DNA of 64,000 nucleotides, taken from the sequence record NC_070872.1; one strand, given 5' to 3'. Made by a program: the position numbers and the translations under genes. Position 1 is the stretch's first letter; each line of letters starts with the position of its first letter. The notes under the pieces were generated by a model. That model searched no databases. It was not told the DNA's origin and was given only the letters and a program-made list of their open reading frames with translations. Positions 246 through 19,547 of this stretch are shown in pieces. The DNA is from Escherichia phage U1G.

Positions 246-572
246 ATGAAAACTTTAATTGCTGTTGCTGTAGTAGCTTTATCAGTTCTGTCATTCAGTG
301 CTCAAGCATCAAGCCGTGAAACTCTGTTAGACGCTGCTGCCGACTACAAAGCCAATAATGCAAACTTTGTGAACCAGGGTTACTTCATGGGCATGGTTAC
401 TATGGGTGTAGAGTCAGGAAATAATTGTGTACCGGAGAATATGAAGTTAGGAGCCATATTTGACAGAGTAGCTTCTATTATCCTGTATGACCGAAAGGTT
501 AATGCAACGAAAAAACCGTCAGATATGATTCTGATGGCAATTGATACAGCATACCCATGTATTAAATCTTAA
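246..572 (+). CDS. hypothetical secreted/periplasmic protein
   Basis: N-terminal signal-peptide-like segment MKTLIAVAVVALSVLSFSAQA followed by polar mature region. Confidence 0.45.
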   Translation: MKTLIAVAVVALSVLSFSAQASSRETLLDAAADYKANNANFVNQGYFMGMVTMGVESGNNCVPENMKLGAIFDRVASIILYDRKVNATKKPSDMILMAIDTAYPCIKS

Positions 573-606
573 TTAGTAATTCCATTAACTTTAGGAGAGT
601 AAGTAA

Positions 607-927
607 ATGGCGAGCATTGACTCACTGACCGTATGTAATACACGTCAGGCCCGTAACTTTATTATCCGTGCCCTGCAAGCAGGTAACGTACCGTTCCTGA
701 CTTCATCACCAGGCATGGGTAAATCTGCAATTATTCGTTCTGTTGCAGAAGAATTTGGTATGAAGCTGATAGACCATCGTCTGTCTACTTCTGCCCCAGA
801 AGACTTGTCAGGCCTACCATTCCGTAATGGTGACCATGCAGAGTTTATTCCTTTCGCTGATTTATTCCCTATTGAAGGGGATGAAATACCAGAAGGGTAT
901 AATGGTTGGCTCTTGTTCCTTAACTAA
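607..927 (+). CDS. MoxR-like AAA+ ATPase, N-terminal part (exon 1)
   Basis: Walker A SSPGMGKSA; ORF ends GWLLFLN-stop exactly where Walker B hhhhDE is expected; the DEFNSA continuation is found at 1804 in the downstream ORF. Confidence 0.6.
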   Translation: MASIDSLTVCNTRQARNFIIRALQAGNVPFLTSSPGMGKSAIIRSVAEEFGMKLIDHRLSTSAPEDLSGLPFRNGDHAEFIPFADLFPIEGDEIPEGYNGWLLFLN

Positions 928-1802
928 CGGGGCTTCATGAGAGTAATCTCATGTCGAAAGTTACCTAAACAGGGAACCTCTTCTAATCTGGTTGGCTCAG
1001 GTGTATACTTGAGTTTTAATCAATTGGAGACAATCCTGTGCTAAATAATGAAATTTGGAAAGATGTGCCCGACTTACCGTATGAAGTTTCCAACTTTGGC
1101 GTAGTACGCCGAAAAGAAGGAAAGTATAAATACAAAAATAGGACACACATAAAACCGTATCTTAATAACAAAGGGTACTACTGCGTGAACCTGTACATGA
1201 ATAGTAAAGTGTACAAATACCAAGTTCACCGTCTAGTAGGGTTAGCCTTTGTACCAAACCCTAATAACTATCCTATCGTTAATCATATAGATGGAAACCC
1301 TCTTAATAACCACGAGAGTAACCTGGAATGGTGTACCCAGTCTCACAACATGAAACATGCTTGGGATACTGGACTGCAATCAAACAGGCACGCTAATGCT
1401 AGTAATAAGAATCGTGGAGGCTCATCCAAATACGTAGGTGTATCCTGGAGTGAGCAAAGACAAAGATGGTGTGCCCATATAAGGGTTAACAAGAAATCTA
1501 TTGGTTTGGGGCGTTACAAAACAGAGGAAGAAGCTGCCAAAGCCTATGACTCCTATGTAACTAATAACAATCTTATACAGATTGGATACAGTACCAATTT
1601 CATTTAAACGCCAAACGACTATCGAAAACACGCAGCAATGCGGAAGTGAGTAGAGTAGGGTGCAAGCCAATGGCACTCGAAACGGTAACAGCCCTAGTAA
1701 TAGGGCTTTGATATAGTCTCCTCTGCATGGTGACATGCAGCAGTCAGTATTCACTGAGTGTACTGACGGCATTAGTAGTTGCGAACTAATGTGAAGATAA
1801 TG
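922..1802 (+). mobile_element. putative group I intron carrying an HNH endonuclease ORF, interrupting the ATPase gene
   Basis: Walker B split across the insertion; T at last 5' exon position (920) and G at 1802 fit group I splice rules and restore LLFL-DEFN in frame; structured-looking flanks; boundaries approximate. Confidence 0.4.
1038..1607 (+). CDS. HNH homing endonuclease with AP2 DNA-binding domain
   Basis: HNH_3-like NHIDGNPLNNHESNLEWCTQSHN and AP2-like YVGVSWSEQRQRWCAHIRVNKKSIGLGRYKTEEEAAKAYD; GTG start after GGAG. Confidence 0.7.
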   Translation: MLNNEIWKDVPDLPYEVSNFGVVRRKEGKYKYKNRTHIKPYLNNKGYYCVNLYMNSKVYKYQVHRLVGLAFVPNPNNYPIVNHIDGNPLNNHESNLEWCTQSHNMKHAWDTGLQSNRHANASNKNRGGSSKYVGVSWSEQRQRWCAHIRVNKKSIGLGRYKTEEEAAKAYDSYVTNNNLIQIGYSTNFI

Positions 1803-2541
1803 CGATGAGTTCAACTCAGCCAGAAAAGAAGTAGTAGCTGCTGCATATAAACTCATACTAGACCGTATGACTGGTCAGAAAAAACTTCATCCTAATGTGA
1901 TGATTATATGTGCTGGTAACAAAGCTACTGACCGAGCCATTGTTAACCCACTGGGTACTGCAATGCAGTCTCGTGTTGTCCACTTTGAAATGGAACTTAA
2001 CTTCGACATCTTTGTTGAAGACGTGATGATTCCATTTGAATGGGATGAGCGTCTGGTTGCATTCTTACATGCTAACCCGGGTTATCTGCATGACTTCGAC
2101 CCAGCACATAAGAACAAAACGTTCTGTTGTCCCCGTACCTGGGACTTTGTTAACAAAGACCTCAAGAACCGTCCTGAAGGTGCTCTACCTGACGAAGATT
2201 CTATCTACTACGCAGGGCACGTTACTGCTGGTAAGGCTACAGAGTTTGTTCAGTTTACACAGGTGTACAATCGTATGATTACGATTGAGAAGGTAGTCAA
2301 AGACCCTCTGGGCTGTGCACTACCGGAAGATAACAACCTGTGCTGGGCTACCGTTAACCATTTGGCTAATAAAACTACTGAAGAAAACTTCTCTGATGTT
2401 CTTCAGTACATTGAACGATTTAAAACGTTCACTCATAAGATTCTGTACTTCCGTACAGTAGGCAGAGCATTGCCAGAACTTCAGGCTACCCCTGAATGGC
2501 GTAAGGCTGCTTCCAATATCTCTCGTTACATTCACGGATAA
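1803..2541 (+). CDS. MoxR-like AAA+ ATPase, C-terminal part (exon 2)
   Basis: Frame open from 1801 reads DEFNSARKEVVAAAYKLILDRMTGQ...VMIICAGN (Walker B and sensor region); ORF track starts it at 1867. Confidence 0.6.
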
Positions 2542-2548
2542 TCACAAC

Positions 2549-3052
2549 ATGAACCAGATACCTCAGCACACACTTAGTGATGAACAACTCATGCGTGAGT
2601 ATGACCGTATTCAGGCGCAGGCATTTCTCGGACGTAGTGCAGCATTTTTTGGTTCATTACTGTGTAGTCTTAAGTTCTCATGGAAACGTGAAGACTGCCC
2701 CACTGCATGTACTGATGGAATAGAACTCCATTTCAACCCAGACTTCTTTATCTGGATGTGTCCAGATGCAAGAGAAACAGTGCTAATGCACGAACTCTGG
2801 CATGTGGCATATCTGCATGGCATCCGTCGTGGAAGCCGTGACCCAGAGGTCTGGAACCAGGCATGTGACCACTTCATTAATCTTCAGTTAGAAGAAGATG
2901 GATATAAGTTCACTGGTATCGACAAAGGCATTTGCAAAGACCCTCAATACAAAGGGTGGGTCGAAGAAGACATCTACGATGACCTGATGAAGAACCCTCA
3001 GAAAAGGCAGAAGCCGTCAGGGGTGCTGGAGCAGGTCTTGCTGGTGACATGA
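2549..3052 (+). CDS. VWA-partner protein, N-terminal metallopeptidase-like domain (HExxH, DUF2201-like)
   Basis: HELWH motif; directly downstream of the MoxR ATPase; probably one gene with 3049..3723 (frame break). Confidence 0.5.
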   Translation: MNQIPQHTLSDEQLMREYDRIQAQAFLGRSAAFFGSLLCSLKFSWKREDCPTACTDGIELHFNPDFFIWMCPDARETVLMHELWHVAYLHGIRRGSRDPEVWNQACDHFINLQLEEDGYKFTGIDKGICKDPQYKGWVEEDIYDDLMKNPQKRQKPSGVLEQVLLVT

Positions 3053-3723
3053 AATCTCCCACTTCGGGGCAGTCCCAGGGTGCTGTCGTCAACAACGTAG
3101 TACGAGCAATGCAGAGCCAGAAAATGGCTGGTGGACAGATGCCCGGTAAGGGTGCTGGTCGTATGGAAGAGGTTATTACCCAATTCCTTAAACCAGTGGT
3201 TCCATGGCAGGAAGTCCTCATGAACTTCTTTACCGACATTGACGATACTCATTATACGTGGGCCAGACCTAACCGTCGTTTTACTGACATCTATCTACCT
3301 TCCATGGAAGATGATGAAGGACGCTTACGACACTTAGCCTACTTTGAAGATGTATCTGGTTCTATTAGTAGTGCAGATTCTCTGCGATTTAACTCAGAGG
3401 TTGCCTACGTTAAGAGCCAGTTCAATCCTAAGAAGATGTCCCTAATTACCTTCGACGATATTATTCAAGAAGAGATAGACATCACTGAAGAAGATACTTT
3501 TGAAGAGATTAAGATTACTGGTCGTGGTGGTACAAACCTGGAACCAGTACGTGATTGGATTATTAAGAATAAGCCAACCGCTGCAATCATATTCTCTGAT
3601 ATGTATGTTCGTCCTATGGAAGAATTACCATTTGATATTCCTATCATCTGGTGTGTTCTGAATAATCCCAATGCTACCGTACCTTTTGGGGAGGTAGTTC
3701 ATATCCCTAAAGGAATGAAATAA
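3049..3723 (+). CDS. von Willebrand factor A (VWA) domain protein, C-terminal part
   Basis: VWA-like fold signature; -1 frame is open back to 2983 through a Gly/Ala linker, suggesting fusion with 2549..3052. Confidence 0.5.
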   Translation: MKSPTSGQSQGAVVNNVVRAMQSQKMAGGQMPGKGAGRMEEVITQFLKPVVPWQEVLMNFFTDIDDTHYTWARPNRRFTDIYLPSMEDDEGRLRHLAYFEDVSGSISSADSLRFNSEVAYVKSQFNPKKMSLITFDDIIQEEIDITEEDTFEEIKITGRGGTNLEPVRDWIIKNKPTAAIIFSDMYVRPMEELPFDIPIIWCVLNNPNATVPFGEVVHIPKGMK

Positions 3724-4872: not shown

Positions 4873-5112
4873 GGTACTGTTATGTTTCAAAATAGACGAG
4901 GTAAATCAGTCCTACATGATATGGACTTTAGTAAGCTGGAAGAAAGGCTAATTGCACACGCAGGCATTCATGACTCAGTAGATGTTACTGTTTCTAAGGT
5001 TGAATTAAAGAATCTGGAGAATATGCTCTCCAAGATGAAACAAACATTAATTCATGGATGGTCAGGTAGGCAGGTATTTGTTGATACTTACATTCCCCGG
5101 AACCTCATCTGA
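4873..5112 (+). CDS. hypothetical protein (frame continues to 5279 after a single-base frame break)
   Basis: Likely start MFQNRRGK; -1 frame open from 5085 to 5279 reads as protein; C4 run at 5095..5098. Confidence 0.3.
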   Translation, partial: GTVMFQNRRGKSVLHDMDFSKLEERLIAHAGIHDSVDVTVSKVELKNLENMLSKMKQTLIHGWSGRQVFVDTYIPRNLI

Positions 5113-5278
5113 AATCTAAGGTAGACAGGATCATAGATAAGTTCTGGCTTAACCCATGCGGCGATGATACACAACTTTACCTGGCTCAAATACAAAAGAA
5201 TCCACGTACTAAGGATGTATTCAAAGGAAAGAGCACTACTCATCATTACCCCTGGTATAGAAGAGGTAGTAAATACTA

Positions 5279-5722
5279 ATGCGTATCCCATTCCTACGGA
5301 AAAGGGAACGAAATCCTATTCTTTATAATAAAGGCATAGAGGATGAGTATGAACTCAACCGTAAAGCTCGTTCCTACACAACAAAATTATTCATGGGGTC
5401 TAACAACCCTGATAGGTTATTGGACTTTGTTTTTGAGCAAGTCTTTATCATATACAGCTTAGCTATGTCTGCTGGTTCACAAGAAGTAAGTGATAAGGCA
5501 AGAGATGCTCTCTGTATGCTTCGTAGGGAGTATGAAGCCCTTATGTATGAAGACTTGTACTCCTTTAAAAAAGAAACCGCTGTAGCGTGCTCTGTGGCCC
5601 TTACCGAAGGTATAGCAGTATTACAGGAACTACCCCGTAGTGAGTTTAAGCTGGTATATGTTCAGGTTAAGAAGATTACAGAAAACCGTAGTGGTATCAC
5701 CAACTATCTAAGGTCATTCTAA
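5279..5722 (+). CDS. hypothetical protein
   Basis: 147-aa ORF; stop overlaps thyX start. Confidence 0.4.
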   Translation: MRIPFLRKRERNPILYNKGIEDEYELNRKARSYTTKLFMGSNNPDRLLDFVFEQVFIIYSLAMSAGSQEVSDKARDALCMLRREYEALMYEDLYSFKKETAVACSVALTEGIAVLQELPRSEFKLVYVQVKKITENRSGITNYLRSF

Positions 5723-6666
5723 TGATTAAGGCAACTGTCATTGCAGATTCCGTTCACCCAGAAACAGGAACTCGTATTACTACCTTTGAATTGGTTTATC
5801 CCCGATTCATTCACAGTGAGTTTATGACCCACCGAGTATTCAACCGTAATGCTTCAAGCAGTCGTGCTATTCCCACAGCTAAGTTCATCGAACAAGTTCG
5901 TAATGAACCAGTGATGCCAAGTCACTGGGGTAAGAACCAGAAAGGTATGCAAGCAGACGAAGAACTCACTCCCATGGAGATTGAGGATGCTAAGTTTATC
6001 TGGGATAACGCTGCATCTGCTGCTGCTGTGTATGCTGAACAGCTACGACGTGGGCAAGTACATAAGCAAATTGTTAACCGTATTCTGGAACCATTCACGC
6101 ATATTCGTGTGGTGGTAACTTCAACTAGCTGGGCTAACTTCTATGGCTTACGTGACCATGAGGATGCTCAACCGGAAATTCGTTTACTGGCTCAGGCCAT
6201 GAAGAAGGCTCATGAAGAATCTGTTCCGCAAAAGCTCAAGAAAGGTGACTGGCATCTGCCTTATATTCGCAGTGTTGATTGTGCTAATGCTTACAATCAT
6301 TGCAAATATCAACGAATTACTCGTGATGAGCCAAGTAATGAAGAAATTTTAGGCTTGCTGCTTAAAGTCTCTGCTGCTCGCTGTGCCCGTGCTTCTTATA
6401 ACAACTTCGAAGGTAAGCCATCTACTATCAGCGATGACCTTGACCTGTTTGCTAAGTTGGTAGAAAAACAACCAATTCATGCTTCACCTACTGAGCATCA
6501 GGCTACGCCTATGAACCTTGGTGAAAAGTACGTGAATAACATGAACCCAGTTACATGGGAACAAGGTGTTACATCCATGGATAAAGAAGGGAATCTGTAC
6601 TCAGGTAATCTGCTTCACTTTATTCAATTCCGTAAGTTAATCCCCGGTGAAACTATTACTGAATGA
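5722..6666 (+). CDS. thyX: flavin-dependent thymidylate synthase ThyX
   Basis: ThyX signature HRVFNRNASSSRA (RHR...S.R motif); length 314 aa. Confidence 0.7.
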   Translation: MIKATVIADSVHPETGTRITTFELVYPRFIHSEFMTHRVFNRNASSSRAIPTAKFIEQVRNEPVMPSHWGKNQKGMQADEELTPMEIEDAKFIWDNAASAAAVYAEQLRRGQVHKQIVNRILEPFTHIRVVVTSTSWANFYGLRDHEDAQPEIRLLAQAMKKAHEESVPQKLKKGDWHLPYIRSVDCANAYNHCKYQRITRDEPSNEEILGLLLKVSAARCARASYNNFEGKPSTISDDLDLFAKLVEKQPIHASPTEHQATPMNLGEKYVNNMNPVTWEQGVTSMDKEGNLYSGNLLHFIQFRKLIPGETITE

Positions 6667-15352: not shown

Positions 15353-17167
15353 ATGCGTTACATCACCTCTCAGGATACTGGTAAGTATCCTATTGCTATC
15401 CTCGGTCATCAAATCCGAAGGGAGGAGATGATTAAAACCTATCTGCTGCCTTATGACCTAAGTATGGAAGACTTCATCTTTATTGAACTTCATTCTGCCC
15501 CCGGCAAGAAAACTCCTGCAAGAGAGATTAAGGAGTTCATACAGCAGGAACTGCAACAAGTACTGGATGATGCAGAGACTCAATACATTATCTGTACCGA
15601 TTCTGACTACTTCAAAATACTGACTAAAGAAGCTAAAGCAGAGGCTAACCTCGGCTATGTTTGTGACTCAGTATGGGGTAAGCAGAAGGTTATCTATGCA
15701 CCTAGCTACAGACAGGTCTTTTATGACCCTCCTGTAGTGAAATCCAAGATTGCTCAGGGTATGGATGCATTACTTAACCACATACGTGGGCAGTATGCTG
15801 AACCAGGTCAAGGAATCATTGAGTTTGAAGCCTATCCGGATACTCCCGAGAAGATTAAAGCCTGGCTAGACCAGTTGCTTGAGATGAATAAGCCATTGGC
15901 TATAGACATCGAAGCATTCGGTTTAAAGCACTATAACGCCGGTATAGGGACAATTACATTCTGTTGGAGTAAAACACAAGGCATAGCCTTTAACGTGGAC
16001 TACGAGCCGATTCCTGGAGCTACTGAAGCACCATACGGGCGTATCAACCGTAATGATATTGTTCGAAACCTTCTGCGTGAGTTCTTCATTAAGTACACCC
16101 AACGGCAGATGTATCACAACATTAGCTATGATGTGTACATACTTATCTATCAGTTATTCATGGATAATCTGATTGATACAGAGGGACTACTACATGGCAT
16201 GGACATCATGCTGCGTAATTGGGACTGTACTAAGTTAATCACCTATCTGGCTACTAACAGTTGTGCAGGCAATCATCTTAGTCTAAAAGAGCAGGCTCAG
16301 GAGTATGCTGGTAACTATGCTCAGGATGATATCAAAGACATACGTCTTATTCCTAATGAGCAACTGTTACGCTACAACCTCATTGATGGTTTGTGTACTT
16401 GGTACACATACGAGAAGCACTGGGATACTCTCATTGCCGATGACCAACTTGATGTTTACAACAGCATCTTTAAACCAGCCTGTGAAGACATTATTCAGAT
16501 GCAGTTAACCGGTATGCCCATGAATATGGAAACCGTTAACCAAGTAGCTGAAGAAATGGAAACTGACAGGAACCAGGCTCTGAAAACTATTCGTGAGTCT
16601 AACCTCATGAAGAACTTTACCCTGATGCTTCGTCAGGAATGGGTAGACGATAAGAATGCTAAGCTTAAGAAGAAGCAGGTAACACTAGCTGATTGTGACA
16701 TTGAGTTTAATCCTAACTCTGGCCCACAACTACAGAAGCTGTTATTTGACTATATCGGCTTACCGGTTCTTGGTCTTACTAAGAGCAAGCAACCTGCTAC
16801 TGACGGTGACACTATTAAAGCACTGCGTACACATACGCAGAGTGAAGATGTTAAGGAACTGCTCAATGCACTTATCGACTATAAGCTCGTGGATAAGATT
16901 ATCACTAGCTTTATACCAGCTTTCAGGAATGCCCAACCGGGACCAGATGGCTGGCACTACCTGTTCGGTAACCTCAATCTGGGAGGCACAGTCTCCGGTA
17001 GGTTATCGGCTTCAGAGCCAAATCTACAAACAATTCCATCCGGCTCTAAATATGCCAAGAAGATTAAGAAATGCTTCGAAGCTCCACCTAGTTGTTACTT
17101 GCCAAACAGGACCAAGCTGGATACATTAATCCAGTCCCTGAAAAATACAATTAGTGGTGCCAAATGA
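15353..17167 (+). CDS. family-A DNA polymerase, N-terminal part (3'-5' exonuclease and start of polymerase domain)
   Basis: Exo motif LAIDIEAFGL; polymerase segment GRLSASEPNLQTIP...KKCFEAPP stops just before motif A; functional exon probably ends near 17089. Confidence 0.7.
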   Translation: MRYITSQDTGKYPIAILGHQIRREEMIKTYLLPYDLSMEDFIFIELHSAPGKKTPAREIKEFIQQELQQVLDDAETQYIICTDSDYFKILTKEAKAEANLGYVCDSVWGKQKVIYAPSYRQVFYDPPVVKSKIAQGMDALLNHIRGQYAEPGQGIIEFEAYPDTPEKIKAWLDQLLEMNKPLAIDIEAFGLKHYNAGIGTITFCWSKTQGIAFNVDYEPIPGATEAPYGRINRNDIVRNLLREFFIKYTQRQMYHNISYDVYILIYQLFMDNLIDTEGLLHGMDIMLRNWDCTKLITYLATNSCAGNHLSLKEQAQEYAGNYAQDDIKDIRLIPNEQLLRYNLIDGLCTWYTYEKHWDTLIADDQLDVYNSIFKPACEDIIQMQLTGMPMNMETVNQVAEEMETDRNQALKTIRESNLMKNFTLMLRQEWVDDKNAKLKKKQVTLADCDIEFNPNSGPQLQKLLFDYIGLPVLGLTKSKQPATDGDTIKALRTHTQSEDVKELLNALIDYKLVDKIITSFIPAFRNAQPGPDGWHYLFGNLNLGGTVSGRLSASEPNLQTIPSGSKYAKKIKKCFEAPPSCYLPNRTKLDTLIQSLKNTISGAK

Positions 17168-17820
17168 TAGGAAAGAAATTTAATAGATTGACTGTAGTCA
17201 GGTTCAGTCACAAAGACAAATACTATGCAAAGCATTGGGAATGCCTTTGTGACTGTGGGAATACTACTATAGTCAACAATCAAAAATTAAAGAGTGGTCA
17301 TACAAGAAGTTGTGGATGTTTACACAAAGAATGCCTACGTAACTATAAAGATGGTCGTTCTAAGGAACTACTATATAAGGTTTACTACGGCATCCTTGAC
17401 CGCTGCCATAATGAAAAGTGTTCCACTTATTACAAATATGGGGCTAAGGGCATAAGTGTTTGCGATGAGTGGAAAAATTCATACGAAACTTTCCGAGATT
17501 GGGCATTATCTTCTGGTTATGCAGCAGGTCTTAGTATCGACAGGATTGATGCCTATAAAGGATATTCTCCAGACAACTGTAGATGGGCAAATAGAAGTAC
17601 CCAACAAACTAACAAAAGGGTTTGGAGTACAACTCCTTACGTTAGCTACAGTAAGTCAAAAAATAAATGGGTAGGTAGAATTACCCATTTGGGTAAGAGA
17701 ATAGAAATCCGGGTAGATAGAGATCTAGATACTGTTATGAATGCAGTTATTGCTTATGTATTAGCTAATAACTTGGTTGAACAGGAGAAGGTACTTCGTA
17801 ATGCAGGACTTATTAAATAA
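17164..17820 (+). CDS. putative homing endonuclease inserted in the DNA polymerase gene
   Basis: N-terminal GKKFNRLTVV and Cys/His cluster, AP2-like C-terminal segment; sits exactly between polymerase motif-A halves. Confidence 0.5.
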   Translation: MIGKKFNRLTVVRFSHKDKYYAKHWECLCDCGNTTIVNNQKLKSGHTRSCGCLHKECLRNYKDGRSKELLYKVYYGILDRCHNEKCSTYYKYGAKGISVCDEWKNSYETFRDWALSSGYAAGLSIDRIDAYKGYSPDNCRWANRSTQQTNKRVWSTTPYVSYSKSKNKWVGRITHLGKRIEIRVDRDLDTVMNAVIAYVLANNLVEQEKVLRNAGLIK

Positions 17821-18772
17821 ATTAGTTAGCATAAAGGATAGAGTAACCCTGGATGACTATGACGAGTTAATACAATTAGCTAGTAAATATGGCATGCAGG
17901 AACAAGTATCTGAATGCTTTGACTATGAGGGTGGATGGTTGTTTTGTGGGCTAGACTTTGCGTCCTTAGAGGATCGCATATCAGCCCTAACAACCAAAGA
18001 CCCTAATAAATTGCGTGTGTATACTGACGGGTTTGACGGTCATTCACTCAGAGCTAAATTTTATTTCGGTGAACAAATGCCGGATATTGATGACTCTGTA
18101 GAAAGCATCAACTCTATACAGAAAAAATATAAAGCCTTACGTAGCGAATCGAAAGCACCTACTTTCTTACTGACCTACGGCGGAACTTATATGGGCTTAA
18201 TGAAAAACTGTGGCTTCTCGGAAGAGAAGGCTAAATTAATTGAGTCCAGATACCACGAAATGTATACGGTTAGTGATGCCTGGGTTCAGGCTAAGCTAGA
18301 CGAAGCTGCTAAGACTGGTTATGTAACTGCTGCATTTGGTTTGAGAGTGCGTACTCCTTTACTGGCTCAGGTTTTACGTGGGACATGTAAGACCCCATAT
18401 GAAGCAGAAGCTGAAGGCAGGACTGCTGGTAATGCATTAGGTCAAAGCTGGTGTCTACTGAATAATCGTGCTGGCTCAGAGTTTATGCGTAAAGTCAGAA
18501 CCAGTGAGTTCAGATTAGATATACGTCCTTGTATTCACATTCATGATGCCCAATACTTCATGATTCGTGACAACATGGATACCTTGCAGTACACGAACAA
18601 GCACTTGGTTGAAGCCGTTAACTGGCAAGACCATCCTGATATTGCTCATCCAGAAGTTGGTTTGGGTGGGGAACTATCCTTGTTTTACCCAACGTGGGCT
18701 AACGAGATTGAAATTCCAAATCACGCTACCCCAGATGAAGTTCATCAAATAATTCAAAAGGCATTCGCATGA
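17777..18772 (+). CDS. family-A DNA polymerase, C-terminal part (motifs A, B, C)
   Basis: Motif A GGWLFCGLDFASLEDRI, motif B KAPTFLLTYGG, motif C HIHDAQ; real exon probably begins near 17900. Confidence 0.7.
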   Translation: MNRRRYFVMQDLLNKLVSIKDRVTLDDYDELIQLASKYGMQEQVSECFDYEGGWLFCGLDFASLEDRISALTTKDPNKLRVYTDGFDGHSLRAKFYFGEQMPDIDDSVESINSIQKKYKALRSESKAPTFLLTYGGTYMGLMKNCGFSEEKAKLIESRYHEMYTVSDAWVQAKLDEAAKTGYVTAAFGLRVRTPLLAQVLRGTCKTPYEAEAEGRTAGNALGQSWCLLNNRAGSEFMRKVRTSEFRLDIRPCIHIHDAQYFMIRDNMDTLQYTNKHLVEAVNWQDHPDIAHPEVGLGGELSLFYPTWANEIEIPNHATPDEVHQIIQKAFA

Positions 18773-19074: not shown

Positions 19075-19547
19075 TGACTAAGCTCTCCGGTGGATTGAAT
19101 AACTGGTATGTAGTACCAGTTAAGAACCCTCAACGGAAAGAGCAAGAGCCATACCAAGCAGAGTGTGAGGATATTATCCAGGCACTGGGCATGACCTTCG
19201 ATGAAGGTTGTGCCTTTAAAGCTCTATGGCGAAATGCTGCTGCCCGTATGGGTAATGGTAAACCTGGAAATACTCCAGTGTATGATTGTGAGAAGCTTGT
19301 TCATTATGCTAATCGACTACTTGCTAAAGCTTACTTTGATTCTAAGGATAGCGGTGAAGTAGTTAAGTTGGAAGAATCCAATACGGATTGGGTTTACAGT
19401 AATGAAAGACCATCCTTCATGCGTAAGTGGAAAAAGCTTGAGTATGAGTACAAAAACCATTGTACAACCTACACATGCTTTCCAGGGGAACCACAGCTAC
19501 TATCTATTAACTGGGCAGATATTTATCGTTATAGGATTACCTACTAA
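19074..19547 (+). CDS. hypothetical protein
   Basis: 157-aa ORF with overlapping stop/start. Confidence 0.35.
   Translation: MTKLSGGLNNWYVVPVKNPQRKEQEPYQAECEDIIQALGMTFDEGCAFKALWRNAAARMGNGKPGNTPVYDCEKLVHYANRLLAKAYFDSKDSGEVVKLEESNTDWVYSNERPSFMRKWKKLEYEYKNHCTTYTCFPGEPQLLSINWADIYRYRITY

Follow-up and report, generated by a model that had tools for sequence, protein, structure and literature searches.

Escherichia phage U1G (sequence record NC_070872.1) carries a family-A DNA polymerase gene that is broken just before catalytic motif A by an endonuclease-type open reading frame (ORF) of 657 nucleotides (nt). This arrangement raises the question of whether the two polymerase parts are rejoined, at the level of RNA or protein, or whether they serve as two separate polypeptides. 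A preliminary description of the 64,000-nt stretch that was analyzed (the window, to whose full length all positions below refer) had pointed out the break and the ORF, had favored an intron as the explanation, and had named a genuinely split polymerase as the alternative. The features that it had noticed were all confirmed. Of its two readings we uphold the alternative, because the flanks of the endonuclease ORF encode conserved protein tails and because these tails persist in relatives that have lost the endonuclease (locus L042) or in which it is dead (locus L009). On the basis of comparative sequence analyses, the locus probably represents a split polymerase with a free-standing homing endonuclease, and no splicing would be involved. 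U1G is a G7C/N4-like coliphage from the Schitoviridae and belongs to Gamaleyavirus; its polymerase region is 98.7% identical to that of Escherichia phage PGN829.1.

The entire locus lies on the + strand. The upstream polymerase ORF (15353..17167, 604 amino acids, aa) follows the family-A frame, ...KKIKKCFEAPP, as far as 17089. Beyond this point there are 25 codons without relation to polymerases and a TGA at 17165-17167, which the ATG of the endonuclease gene (17164) overlaps as ATGA. The endonuclease ORF is in frame 1 and the polymerase in frame 2; the polymerase frame has stops inside the span of the endonuclease ORF, and the endonuclease is fused to neither polymerase part. At 17777 the polymerase frame reopens, and it runs to a stop at 18772, with motif A beginning at 17933. 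The downstream polymerase fragment (C-fragment, as opposed to the upstream N-fragment) has an ATG at 17801, 20 nt ahead of the end of the endonuclease ORF and with AGGAGAAGG 9 nt upstream. Its predicted 323-aa product reads MQDLLNKLVSIKDRVTLDDYDELIQLASKYGMQEQVSECFDYEG, then GWLFCGLDFASLEDR, then motifs B and C. The individual features are the following (pI, isoelectric point):

15353..17089, + strand: native N-terminal polymerase part, 579 codons, with the 3'-5' exonuclease, the thumb, RLSxxxPNLQ and KKCFEAPP; collinear with the ECBP1 and UE-S5a polymerases to ...EAPP
17090..17932, + strand: complete cassette (tail, endonuclease and extension), 843 nt, without counterpart in ECBP1 and UE-S5a
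17090..17167, + strand: C-terminal tail of the N-fragment, SCYLPNRTKLDTLIQSLKNTISGAK, and TGA; 25 aa, net charge +3, pI 9.6
17081..17160, + strand: possible RNA stem in which 17081-17095 (the A-P-P codons) pair with 17147-17160; weak
17164..17820, + strand: HNH/AP2 endonuclease gene, 218 aa, matching phrog_374
17783..17791, + strand: Shine-Dalgarno-like AGGAGAAGG of the C-fragment, inside the endonuclease coding sequence
17801..17932, + strand: N-terminal extension of the C-fragment, MQDLLNKLVSIKDRVTLDDYDELIQLASKYGMQEQVSECFDYEG, 44 aa, net charge -6, pI 4.1; its first 20 nt are shared with the endonuclease gene
17933..18772, + strand: native C-terminal polymerase part, with motif A GWLFCGLDFASLEDR (17933-17977), motif B RSESKAPTFLLTYGG, motif C HIHDAQ and the stop

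Across the insertion site, ECBP1 and UE-S5a have a continuous polymerase with the sequence EAPPGWIFCGLDFA. Alignment with these N4-like polymerases, a check that the preliminary description had proposed, fixed the insertion at 17090..17932 (843 nt, give or take one Gly codon), between ...KKCFEAPP and GWLFCGLDFA and one residue ahead of the motif A strand. The interruption had thus been correctly placed after KKCFEAPP (17089), but its end is at 17932 and not at 17920 as previously thought. Outside the endonuclease ORF the insert comprises no more than 74 + 112 nt, all of them coding: both flanks are in-frame extensions of the polymerase fragments and not spacer. No + strand terminator was found in the insert.

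Together, the two fragments make up one polymerase. The DNA_pol_A profile of Pfam matched the N-fragment at profile positions 11-150 (E 3.7e-18) and the C-fragment at positions 137-340 (E 1.6e-15), which is a complementary pattern, and the best-matching phage protein families were phrog_17 for the N-fragment (E 6.9e-117) and phrog_2573 for the C-fragment (E 3.2e-75). All hallmarks of a family-A polymerase of the N4 gp39 type (DIEA, DFASLEDR, RSESKAPTFLLTYGG and HIHDAQ) are retained across the two fragments, and the phages that carry the insertion are viable lytic isolates. An AlphaFold2 model of the C-fragment alone, built from 30 sequences, had a mean predicted local distance difference test (pLDDT) value of 80.7, and its body resembles the structures of Pol I, Klentaq, Bst and Pol theta (Foldseek, E ~1e-10).

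Further evidence comes from the two tails. A protein search with the C-fragment returned many proteins of 314-335 aa with a similar N-terminal extension; their contigs are N4-like and reach 77 kb. We inspected eight further loci (L008, L009, L010, L011, L041, L042, L046 and L048). Their C-fragments are 55-67% identical to that of the window; L048 belongs to a close Gamaleyavirus relative. In all eight loci the gene is split at the same point, ..CF[EVQ]APx / GW[LIV]..G.DF (here and below, a slash marks the point of insertion). The N-fragment tails read ARMLLNLEKLRNFIQTLKQTLEGAA in L008, AYWKINQNMLQTFILELKQSLKGA in L009, QRFIVNKTKLDNFISTLKSHRRRTNGP in L042, GNTKIDTQALLGIIQTLKQSKIGATL in L041 and ARYIINKKHLQDIINTL in L046, with shorter forms in L010, L011 and P0149, the latter being the one new tail among 55 hits of a protein search with the end of the N-fragment. 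The tail frames are also intact in PGN829.1, phi G17, ST4 and L048. As proteins, the N-tails are homologous (pairwise z up to 9 against shuffles), at a nucleotide identity of about 50% and with saturated synonymous sites (proportion of synonymous differences, pS, up to 1.0). The extensions of the C-fragments are initiated by ATG and comprise 39-52 aa in the further loci; they are also conserved in P0014, P0016, P0044, P0062, P0074, P0081, P0089 and L046. In the window, L008 and L009 the C-fragment starts with ATGCAGGA, with AAGGT 8-9 nt upstream, within the C-terminal codons of the endonuclease gene. The lengths vary (17-27 aa for the N-tail, 39-52 aa for the C-extension). In nine of nine pairs a basic N-tail (pI 7.9-12) is combined with an acidic C-extension (pI 4.1-5.6), and both are missing from the continuous polymerases of ECBP1 and UE-S5a. 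At least 9 divergent N4-like phages with this split site retain the two tails at the protein level.

Two of these loci can be regarded as derivatives of the cassette. In L042, the halves of the polymerase gene are separated by about 3 kb (locus positions 435..3487) that contain nrdA (698 aa) and nrdB (319 aa) and no endonuclease, and both tails are kept. This locus comes from an N4-like metagenomic phage, and the start of its nrdA is overlapped by the N-fragment tail. In L009, the endonuclease gene has a nonsense mutation, TGG to TAG, in its NCRW motif, while nothing disrupts the tails or the start of the C-fragment. The preliminary description had named intron-less homologs that end at the same point as evidence against an intron, and L042 and L009 are homologs of this type.

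Structure prediction and sequence comparison also provided a view on the nature of the C-side tail. In the AlphaFold2 model the extension forms three helices with block-mean pLDDT values of 71-85, which run into the motif A strand. Over its last ~23 residues (ELIQLASKYGMQEQVSECFDYEG) the extension repeats, in diverged form, the native NLQTIPSGSKYAKKIKKCFEAPP at the end of the N-fragment (window, z 4.2; L042, z 6.0; for a remnant at the nucleotide level, p is about 0.05), and in a tblastn search its residues 22-71 aligned to the intact ECBP1 polymerase. The C-fragment is therefore equipped with a second version of the helix-strand element that lies ahead of motif A in an intact polymerase. The duplicate (17864..17932, compared with 17021..17089) covers exactly the interval from PN/LQ to PP/GW, which is the "middle exon" of L008 and L041; this match may be a trace of how the cassette originated, or a coincidence. 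Taking the tail data together, we lean slightly towards the view that the tails are functionally required.

The protein encoded between the fragments belongs to a large phage family. It matches phrog_374, 'HNH endonuclease' (E 2.9e-63), and gave no match to a Pfam family. It consists of an N-terminal Cys-rich beta domain, a PacI-like beta-beta-alpha-Me (HNH) core (..LSIDRID..YSPDNCRW..) and a C-terminal AP2 DNA-binding domain, and thus has the nuclease fold of HNH homing endonucleases. The gene is free-standing in that it has its own frame and start, outside any detected ribozyme. Its family is represented in 770 phage records and 707 database clusters; one member, in the N4-like phage phiA41, lies between intact genes, and a scan of IMG/VR with the endonuclease profile yielded 26 loci of which one, from the same phage as L010, is a polymerase split, so that the family mostly resides elsewhere.

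The distribution of the cassette is mosaic. Among 76 related phage records, about 70 have an uninterrupted polymerase gene, and the carriers are PGN829.1, phi G17 and ST4 (5 records when RefSeq copies are included). The insert of PGN829.1 is identical to that of the window, and phi G17 and ST4 have theirs at the same site. The GC content of the insert is 0.34-0.40, as compared to 0.42-0.48 for the flanks. The cassettes of the window and ST4 share 96-98% identity, but their downstream polymerase flanks only 73%: the flank of the window resembles ECBP1 and that of ST4 resembles UE-S5a, and each of the two backbones also has cassette-free members. The same cassette in different polymerase backbones is the pattern expected of a homing element, and it is likewise characteristic of homing that close relatives differ in the presence of the insert at a single site and that it shows traces of lateral transfer. 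The preliminary description was right to regard the insertion at a conserved catalytic motif as a hallmark of this process. Fold, family and distribution thus support the designation as a homing endonuclease. In the literature on PGN829.1, phi G17, ST4 and Gamaleyavirus we found no mention of this insertion.

Several points weigh against the proposed split polymerase with functional tails. A splice between U(17089) and G(17929) would satisfy the U...G rule of group I introns and would yield PPGGW, which contains an additional Gly. The folding of the flanks is slightly more stable than that of shuffled sequences (z -2.1 and -1.8), and the negative result of our Rfam scan, described below, reaches only the ribozyme classes that are represented in Rfam. 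For the tails, the ratio of nonsynonymous to synonymous differences (pN/pS) is weakly below 1 (0.42-0.78, in the true frame only), and these are short sequences; two of the five comparisons in this test were misaligned and have been ignored. The idea that the N-tail forms an amphipathic helix was dropped, as a hydrophobic-moment test gave p-values of 0.06-0.6. The activity and the target site of the endonuclease are putative, being read from its fold and distribution. Finally, in the split NrdA of phage Aeh1 the tails are dispensable for heterodimer formation and are needed for higher-order assembly and activity (PMC3045599), and the polymerase, as a monomeric enzyme, would have no higher-order assembly step of this kind.

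The splice site with its extra Gly and the slightly stable flanks would suit a group I self-splicing intron that contains the endonuclease ORF. Splicing would then produce one polymerase mRNA for about 860 aa (~98 kDa), with a ligated exon junction that would read CCACCU/GGUGGAUGG or similar. It fits this explanation that conserved catalytic motifs are typical targets of intron homing, that related polymerases hold true group I introns with HNH genes 22 codons upstream (PhAPEC5, L008, L041), and that the polymerase of JA-1 has a true group I intron inside motif A. In addition, introns were assumed by the GenBank annotators of PhAPEC5 and, for JA-1, by Fouts et al. 2013. However, when 16800-18200 of the window was scanned with Rfam covariance models, as the preliminary description had suggested, no match to the Intron_gpI core (RF00028) was obtained at a permissive threshold of E<=10, and the homologous cassettes of six loci (L008-L011, L041, L042) gave none either. 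The true group I introns in related polymerases that served as positive controls were detected with 38 bits in PhAPEC5, 42.9 in L041 and 29.6 in JA-1, and all three have the P7 element GATATAGTC. The 74 + 112 nt outside the endonuclease ORF are too little for a ribozyme core. Moreover, these ~186 nt are in-frame coding sequence with protein-level homology in divergent phages, and an intron would have no reason to keep such flanks, nor a ribosome-binding site for the downstream fragment: the conserved Shine-Dalgarno sequence and ATG would serve no purpose. Exact restoration of PPGW is incompatible with an exon-terminal U and an intron-terminal G together, and in L042 the gap holds two ribonucleotide reductase genes. 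L008 and L041 have a true group I intron at PN/LQ plus the tail cassette at PP/GW, which means that the two are distinct kinds of element that can coexist in one gene. In view of the Rfam result with its controls, the coding flanks and the derivatives L042 and L009, we reject the intron that the preliminary description had favored as very unlikely.

The other explanations accept that there is no intron. If the polymerase is a true two-polypeptide enzyme, the tails might be neutral leftovers of the insertion, created by read-through on one side and an arbitrary upstream start on the other. Split enzymes can indeed reassemble untagged, and both the poor amphipathic score of the N-tail and the variable tail lengths agree with such an origin. 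Yet sequence, frame, start and charge polarity have been kept across polymerases that are 55-67% identical, as well as after loss (L042) and inactivation (L009) of the endonuclease. Stops or drift would be expected of neutral tails because the synonymous sites are saturated, and the extension is predicted to form three helices, so that we consider neutrality of the tails unlikely. A degenerate or atypical split intein that joins the halves to ~98 kDa by protein trans-splicing could be envisaged because a 25-aa N-terminal piece next to an endonuclease gene superficially resembles atypically split inteins. Endonuclease-linked split inteins are described from "fractured genes" of phage-like metagenomic DNA (PMC2677866), and an intein origin was raised for the Aeh1 tails by Crona et al. 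(PMC3045599). The motifs and the frame speak against it: the N-tails begin with S, A, Q, G or V and lack a conserved Cys/Ser/Thr at this position; the last residues of the extension are ..YEG, ..YEE, ..YDA or ..QDP instead of His-Asn, and the +1 residue is Gly; with 44 aa, the C-side piece falls short of what a Hint fold requires; in both fragments DNA_pol_A is the sole Pfam match, with no Hint or intein among the hits; the endonuclease is out of frame; and the C-terminal half of the extension copies polymerase and not intein sequence. This reading was rejected as exceedingly improbable. Hardly more credible is a pseudogene, the replication being taken over by another polymerase. It is true that the break adjoins the catalytic Asp of motif A, where disruption is normally lethal to activity. 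However, at least four lytic phages, isolated independently and propagating, and many metagenomic genomes have long intact ORFs with the exonuclease motifs and motifs A, B and C, the polymerase parts are as similar among carriers as among non-carriers, and no second polA was seen in the examined loci. N4-type phages rely on their own DNA polymerase.

The following scheme would account for the locus as a split polymerase. A cassette built around a free-standing HNH/AP2 gene would sit in the sole family-A DNA polymerase gene of the phage, in the turn between the ...KKCFEAPP strand and the motif A strand, and it would be repaired at neither the RNA nor the protein level; instead, three overlapping cistrons would be expressed. 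Transcription would run through the region because there is no + strand terminator. The N-fragment (~69 kDa) would contribute the exonuclease, the thumb and part of the fingers and palm, and end in the 25-aa basic tail. The endonuclease would be translated by termination-reinitiation at the ATGA, possibly limited by the stem between 17081-17095 and 17147-17160. This stem is weak (minimum free energy z -2.07; 5 of 200 shuffled sequences fold equally well). One compensatory change, U-A to C-G at 17089/17153, is present in phi G17 and ST4, and two further changes in ST4 disrupt pairs. It is possible that the stem at 17081..17160 restrains independent translation of the endonuclease. The C-fragment (~37 kDa, motifs A, B and C) would be translated from its own Shine-Dalgarno sequence and ATG. 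The fragments would join non-covalently into an active polymerase, most likely assisted by the tails, as in Aeh1 NrdA. Presumably, the target of the endonuclease is the intact allele, which it would cut close to where motif A is encoded, around AAGCTCCTCCAGGCTGGATATTTTG; recombinational repair would then copy the complete cassette, tails included. Such cutting and copying would explain the patchy distribution of the cassette.

One may go a step further and regard the endonuclease and the two tails as one co-mobile "split-and-tag" cassette, which would be a third route to harmless insertion beside introns and inteins. We offer this idea tentatively, with somewhat more doubt than confidence. If it is true, the supplied peptides would let the halves of an essential gene product reassemble, and the copy of the host's helix-strand element would let the C-fragment fold by itself. 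The resulting two-subunit polymerase would outlive the endonuclease and could even admit nrdA and nrdB between its halves.

The polymerase genes of related phages have been interrupted at several other places. In PhAPEC5 and PhAPEC7 the insertion is a different one, at PN/LQ, 22 codons upstream of the window's site. In PhAPEC5 (L003, 2193..2862) it is a group I intron with an HNH_3 endonuclease, and introns at this site also occur in L008, L039, L040 and L041, with Rfam scores of 38-43 bits and the GATATAGTC P7. P0043 and P0051 (start MGLDF...) had been candidates for introns at the window's site, but they represent exon 2 of the PN/LQ intron with a miscalled start. A third insertion, in PD205, lies 22 codons downstream of motif A, at KVY/TDGYDGH. 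Here (L005, 2341..2982), an unannotated HNH_3-like ORF overlaps the end of the N-fragment (tail MGVIVYSVTIDGVDHHIRDDDTIVYDGKTFTGEEFYNAYTNSLL) and the start of the C-fragment (MSQFDNLPKSTHDFTGKKIQSVKKVGSS...), and tails of this type recur in P0161, P0136 and P0133, and in P0012, P0023, P0054, P0077 and P0118. An Rfam match to the PD205 insertion was not found. By its sequence, this element looks like a second, unrelated split cassette with tails, and its existence suggests that the tail strategy originated at least twice in this polymerase gene. The fourth site is in Vibrio phage JA-1 (L049, 12712..13507), where a group I intron (29.6 bits) follows DFNSL within motif A. HNH genes had been reported to split the DNA polymerase of the Vibrio phages JA-1 and VchO139-I, and introns were guessed (PMC3670811); the JA-1 case was considered as a split of the same kind as in the window and was set aside, as JA-1 carries a true intron elsewhere in the gene. 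In L011 (1236..3330) the N-terminal polymerase part is distributed over three ORFs (534, 45 and 110 aa), and P0086 and P0117 (365 aa, from contigs of 72-73 kb) begin at the same upstream point as in L011. This suggests another recurrent split, in the thumb/fingers region.

Additional observations concern the surroundings and the annotation of these loci. At 20521..20958 (+ strand) the window has a second free-standing HNH endonuclease ORF (145 aa; phrog_99, E 5.4e-45). It overlaps the upstream exonuclease gene (19547..20524) by ATGA, and a primase gene follows downstream. This ORF was present in only four of 57 related records (including PGN829.1 and EC1-UPM), and some relatives have a different HNH gene at this place. 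Near position 15508, the N-terminal region of the window's polymerase has one codon fewer than in PGN829.1, phi G17 and ST4. Downstream of the split polymerase of L010, a marine N4-like contig, there are genes for Thy1, a Sequestin (PF21825) and an Acb2/Tad1-hairpin protein (PF24729) at 4990..6626; the latter two are candidate anti-defense genes. In public annotations, the C-fragment begins too far downstream in PGN829.1 (L004, 3228..3923) and ST4 (L007, 3045..3923), and only phi G17 uses the conserved start. The annotated coding sequence of PGN829.1 begins 276 nt past the conserved ATG (locus position 2952) and 144 nt past the start of motif A, which is consequently omitted.

For annotation practice it is relevant that the records list two 'DNA polymerase I' coding sequences, partly with wrong starts, and that similar arrangements are routinely called introns. 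A two-subunit enzyme of the Pol I type that is split beside motif A may also be of interest to polymerase engineers.

The closest precedent is the nrdA-a/mobE/nrdA-b locus of Aeh1 (Friedrich et al. 2007; Crona et al. 2011), where mobE, an HNH endonuclease gene, interrupts nrdA between two beta-strands of the active site and overlaps nrdA-b (PMC3045599). The insertion-derived tails, a basic one on NrdA-a (pI 10.4) and an acidic one on NrdA-b (pI 3.8), are essential for activity, and translation of MobE is held down by RNA structure (PMC3045599). In Aeh1 and in the window alike, the endonuclease gene overlaps the downstream fragment, the GC content of the insert is below that of the surroundings, the upstream fragment has a basic C-terminal and the downstream fragment an acidic N-terminal tail, and RNA structure is possible at the endonuclease start. 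Several features that define the Aeh1 case recur in the window: a gene that is continuous in relatives is split at a critical site, and its fragments have unique tails of opposite charge. The host enzymes differ, being a monomeric family-A polymerase in the window and the dimeric large subunit of a class Ia ribonucleotide reductase in Aeh1, and so do the endonucleases, a PacI-like HNH + AP2 protein and MobE, respectively. With its additional N-terminal Cys-rich beta domain, the window protein also differs from PacI and the phage HNH-AP2 endonucleases. Furthermore, the Aeh1 split was unique among 1200 nrdA genes, whereas tails of the window type occur in many divergent N4-like phages and persist without the endonuclease, and the C-side tail of the window contains a duplicate of host sequence, unlike that of Aeh1. 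For Aeh1, there is proof that the tails function; for the window, a function would follow by analogy.

Two other systems invite comparison. The family-B polymerase gp43 is split into 43A and 43B in the Aeromonas phages 25 and 44RR (Petrov et al.; PMC2988022), and the fragments co-purify and are active. An endonuclease gene lies between the cistrons in phage 25 and an endonuclease-free spacer in 44RR, which parallels the window and L042. This case differs in the polymerase family (B), in the type of endonuclease (seg, GIY-YIG) and in the position of the split, and no conserved pair of tails is described in the text consulted. The introns of PhAPEC5/PhAPEC7 and JA-1 share with the window the interrupted gene, a range of about 60 codons around motif A, an HNH-type ORF and a patchy distribution. 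They have a ribozyme core (Rfam 30-43 bits, GATATAGTC P7) and non-coding flanks, whereas the window has neither. Group I introns with HNH genes are also found in DNA polymerase genes of SPO1-type and T7-like phages.

Crona et al. (PMC3045599) proposed that the rescue of a fragmented essential enzyme by tails is general and that other instances have been overlooked. The present locus is a candidate for a second system of this kind, with a different enzyme and a different endonuclease family. Beyond Aeh1, it offers many divergent natural variants of one tail pair, with endonuclease-dead and endonuclease-free descendants, and this series makes the tail idea testable by comparison and by simple co-expression. 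In kind, the locus is an endonuclease-fragmented essential gene with cassette-derived tails, an arrangement that is known but sparsely documented.

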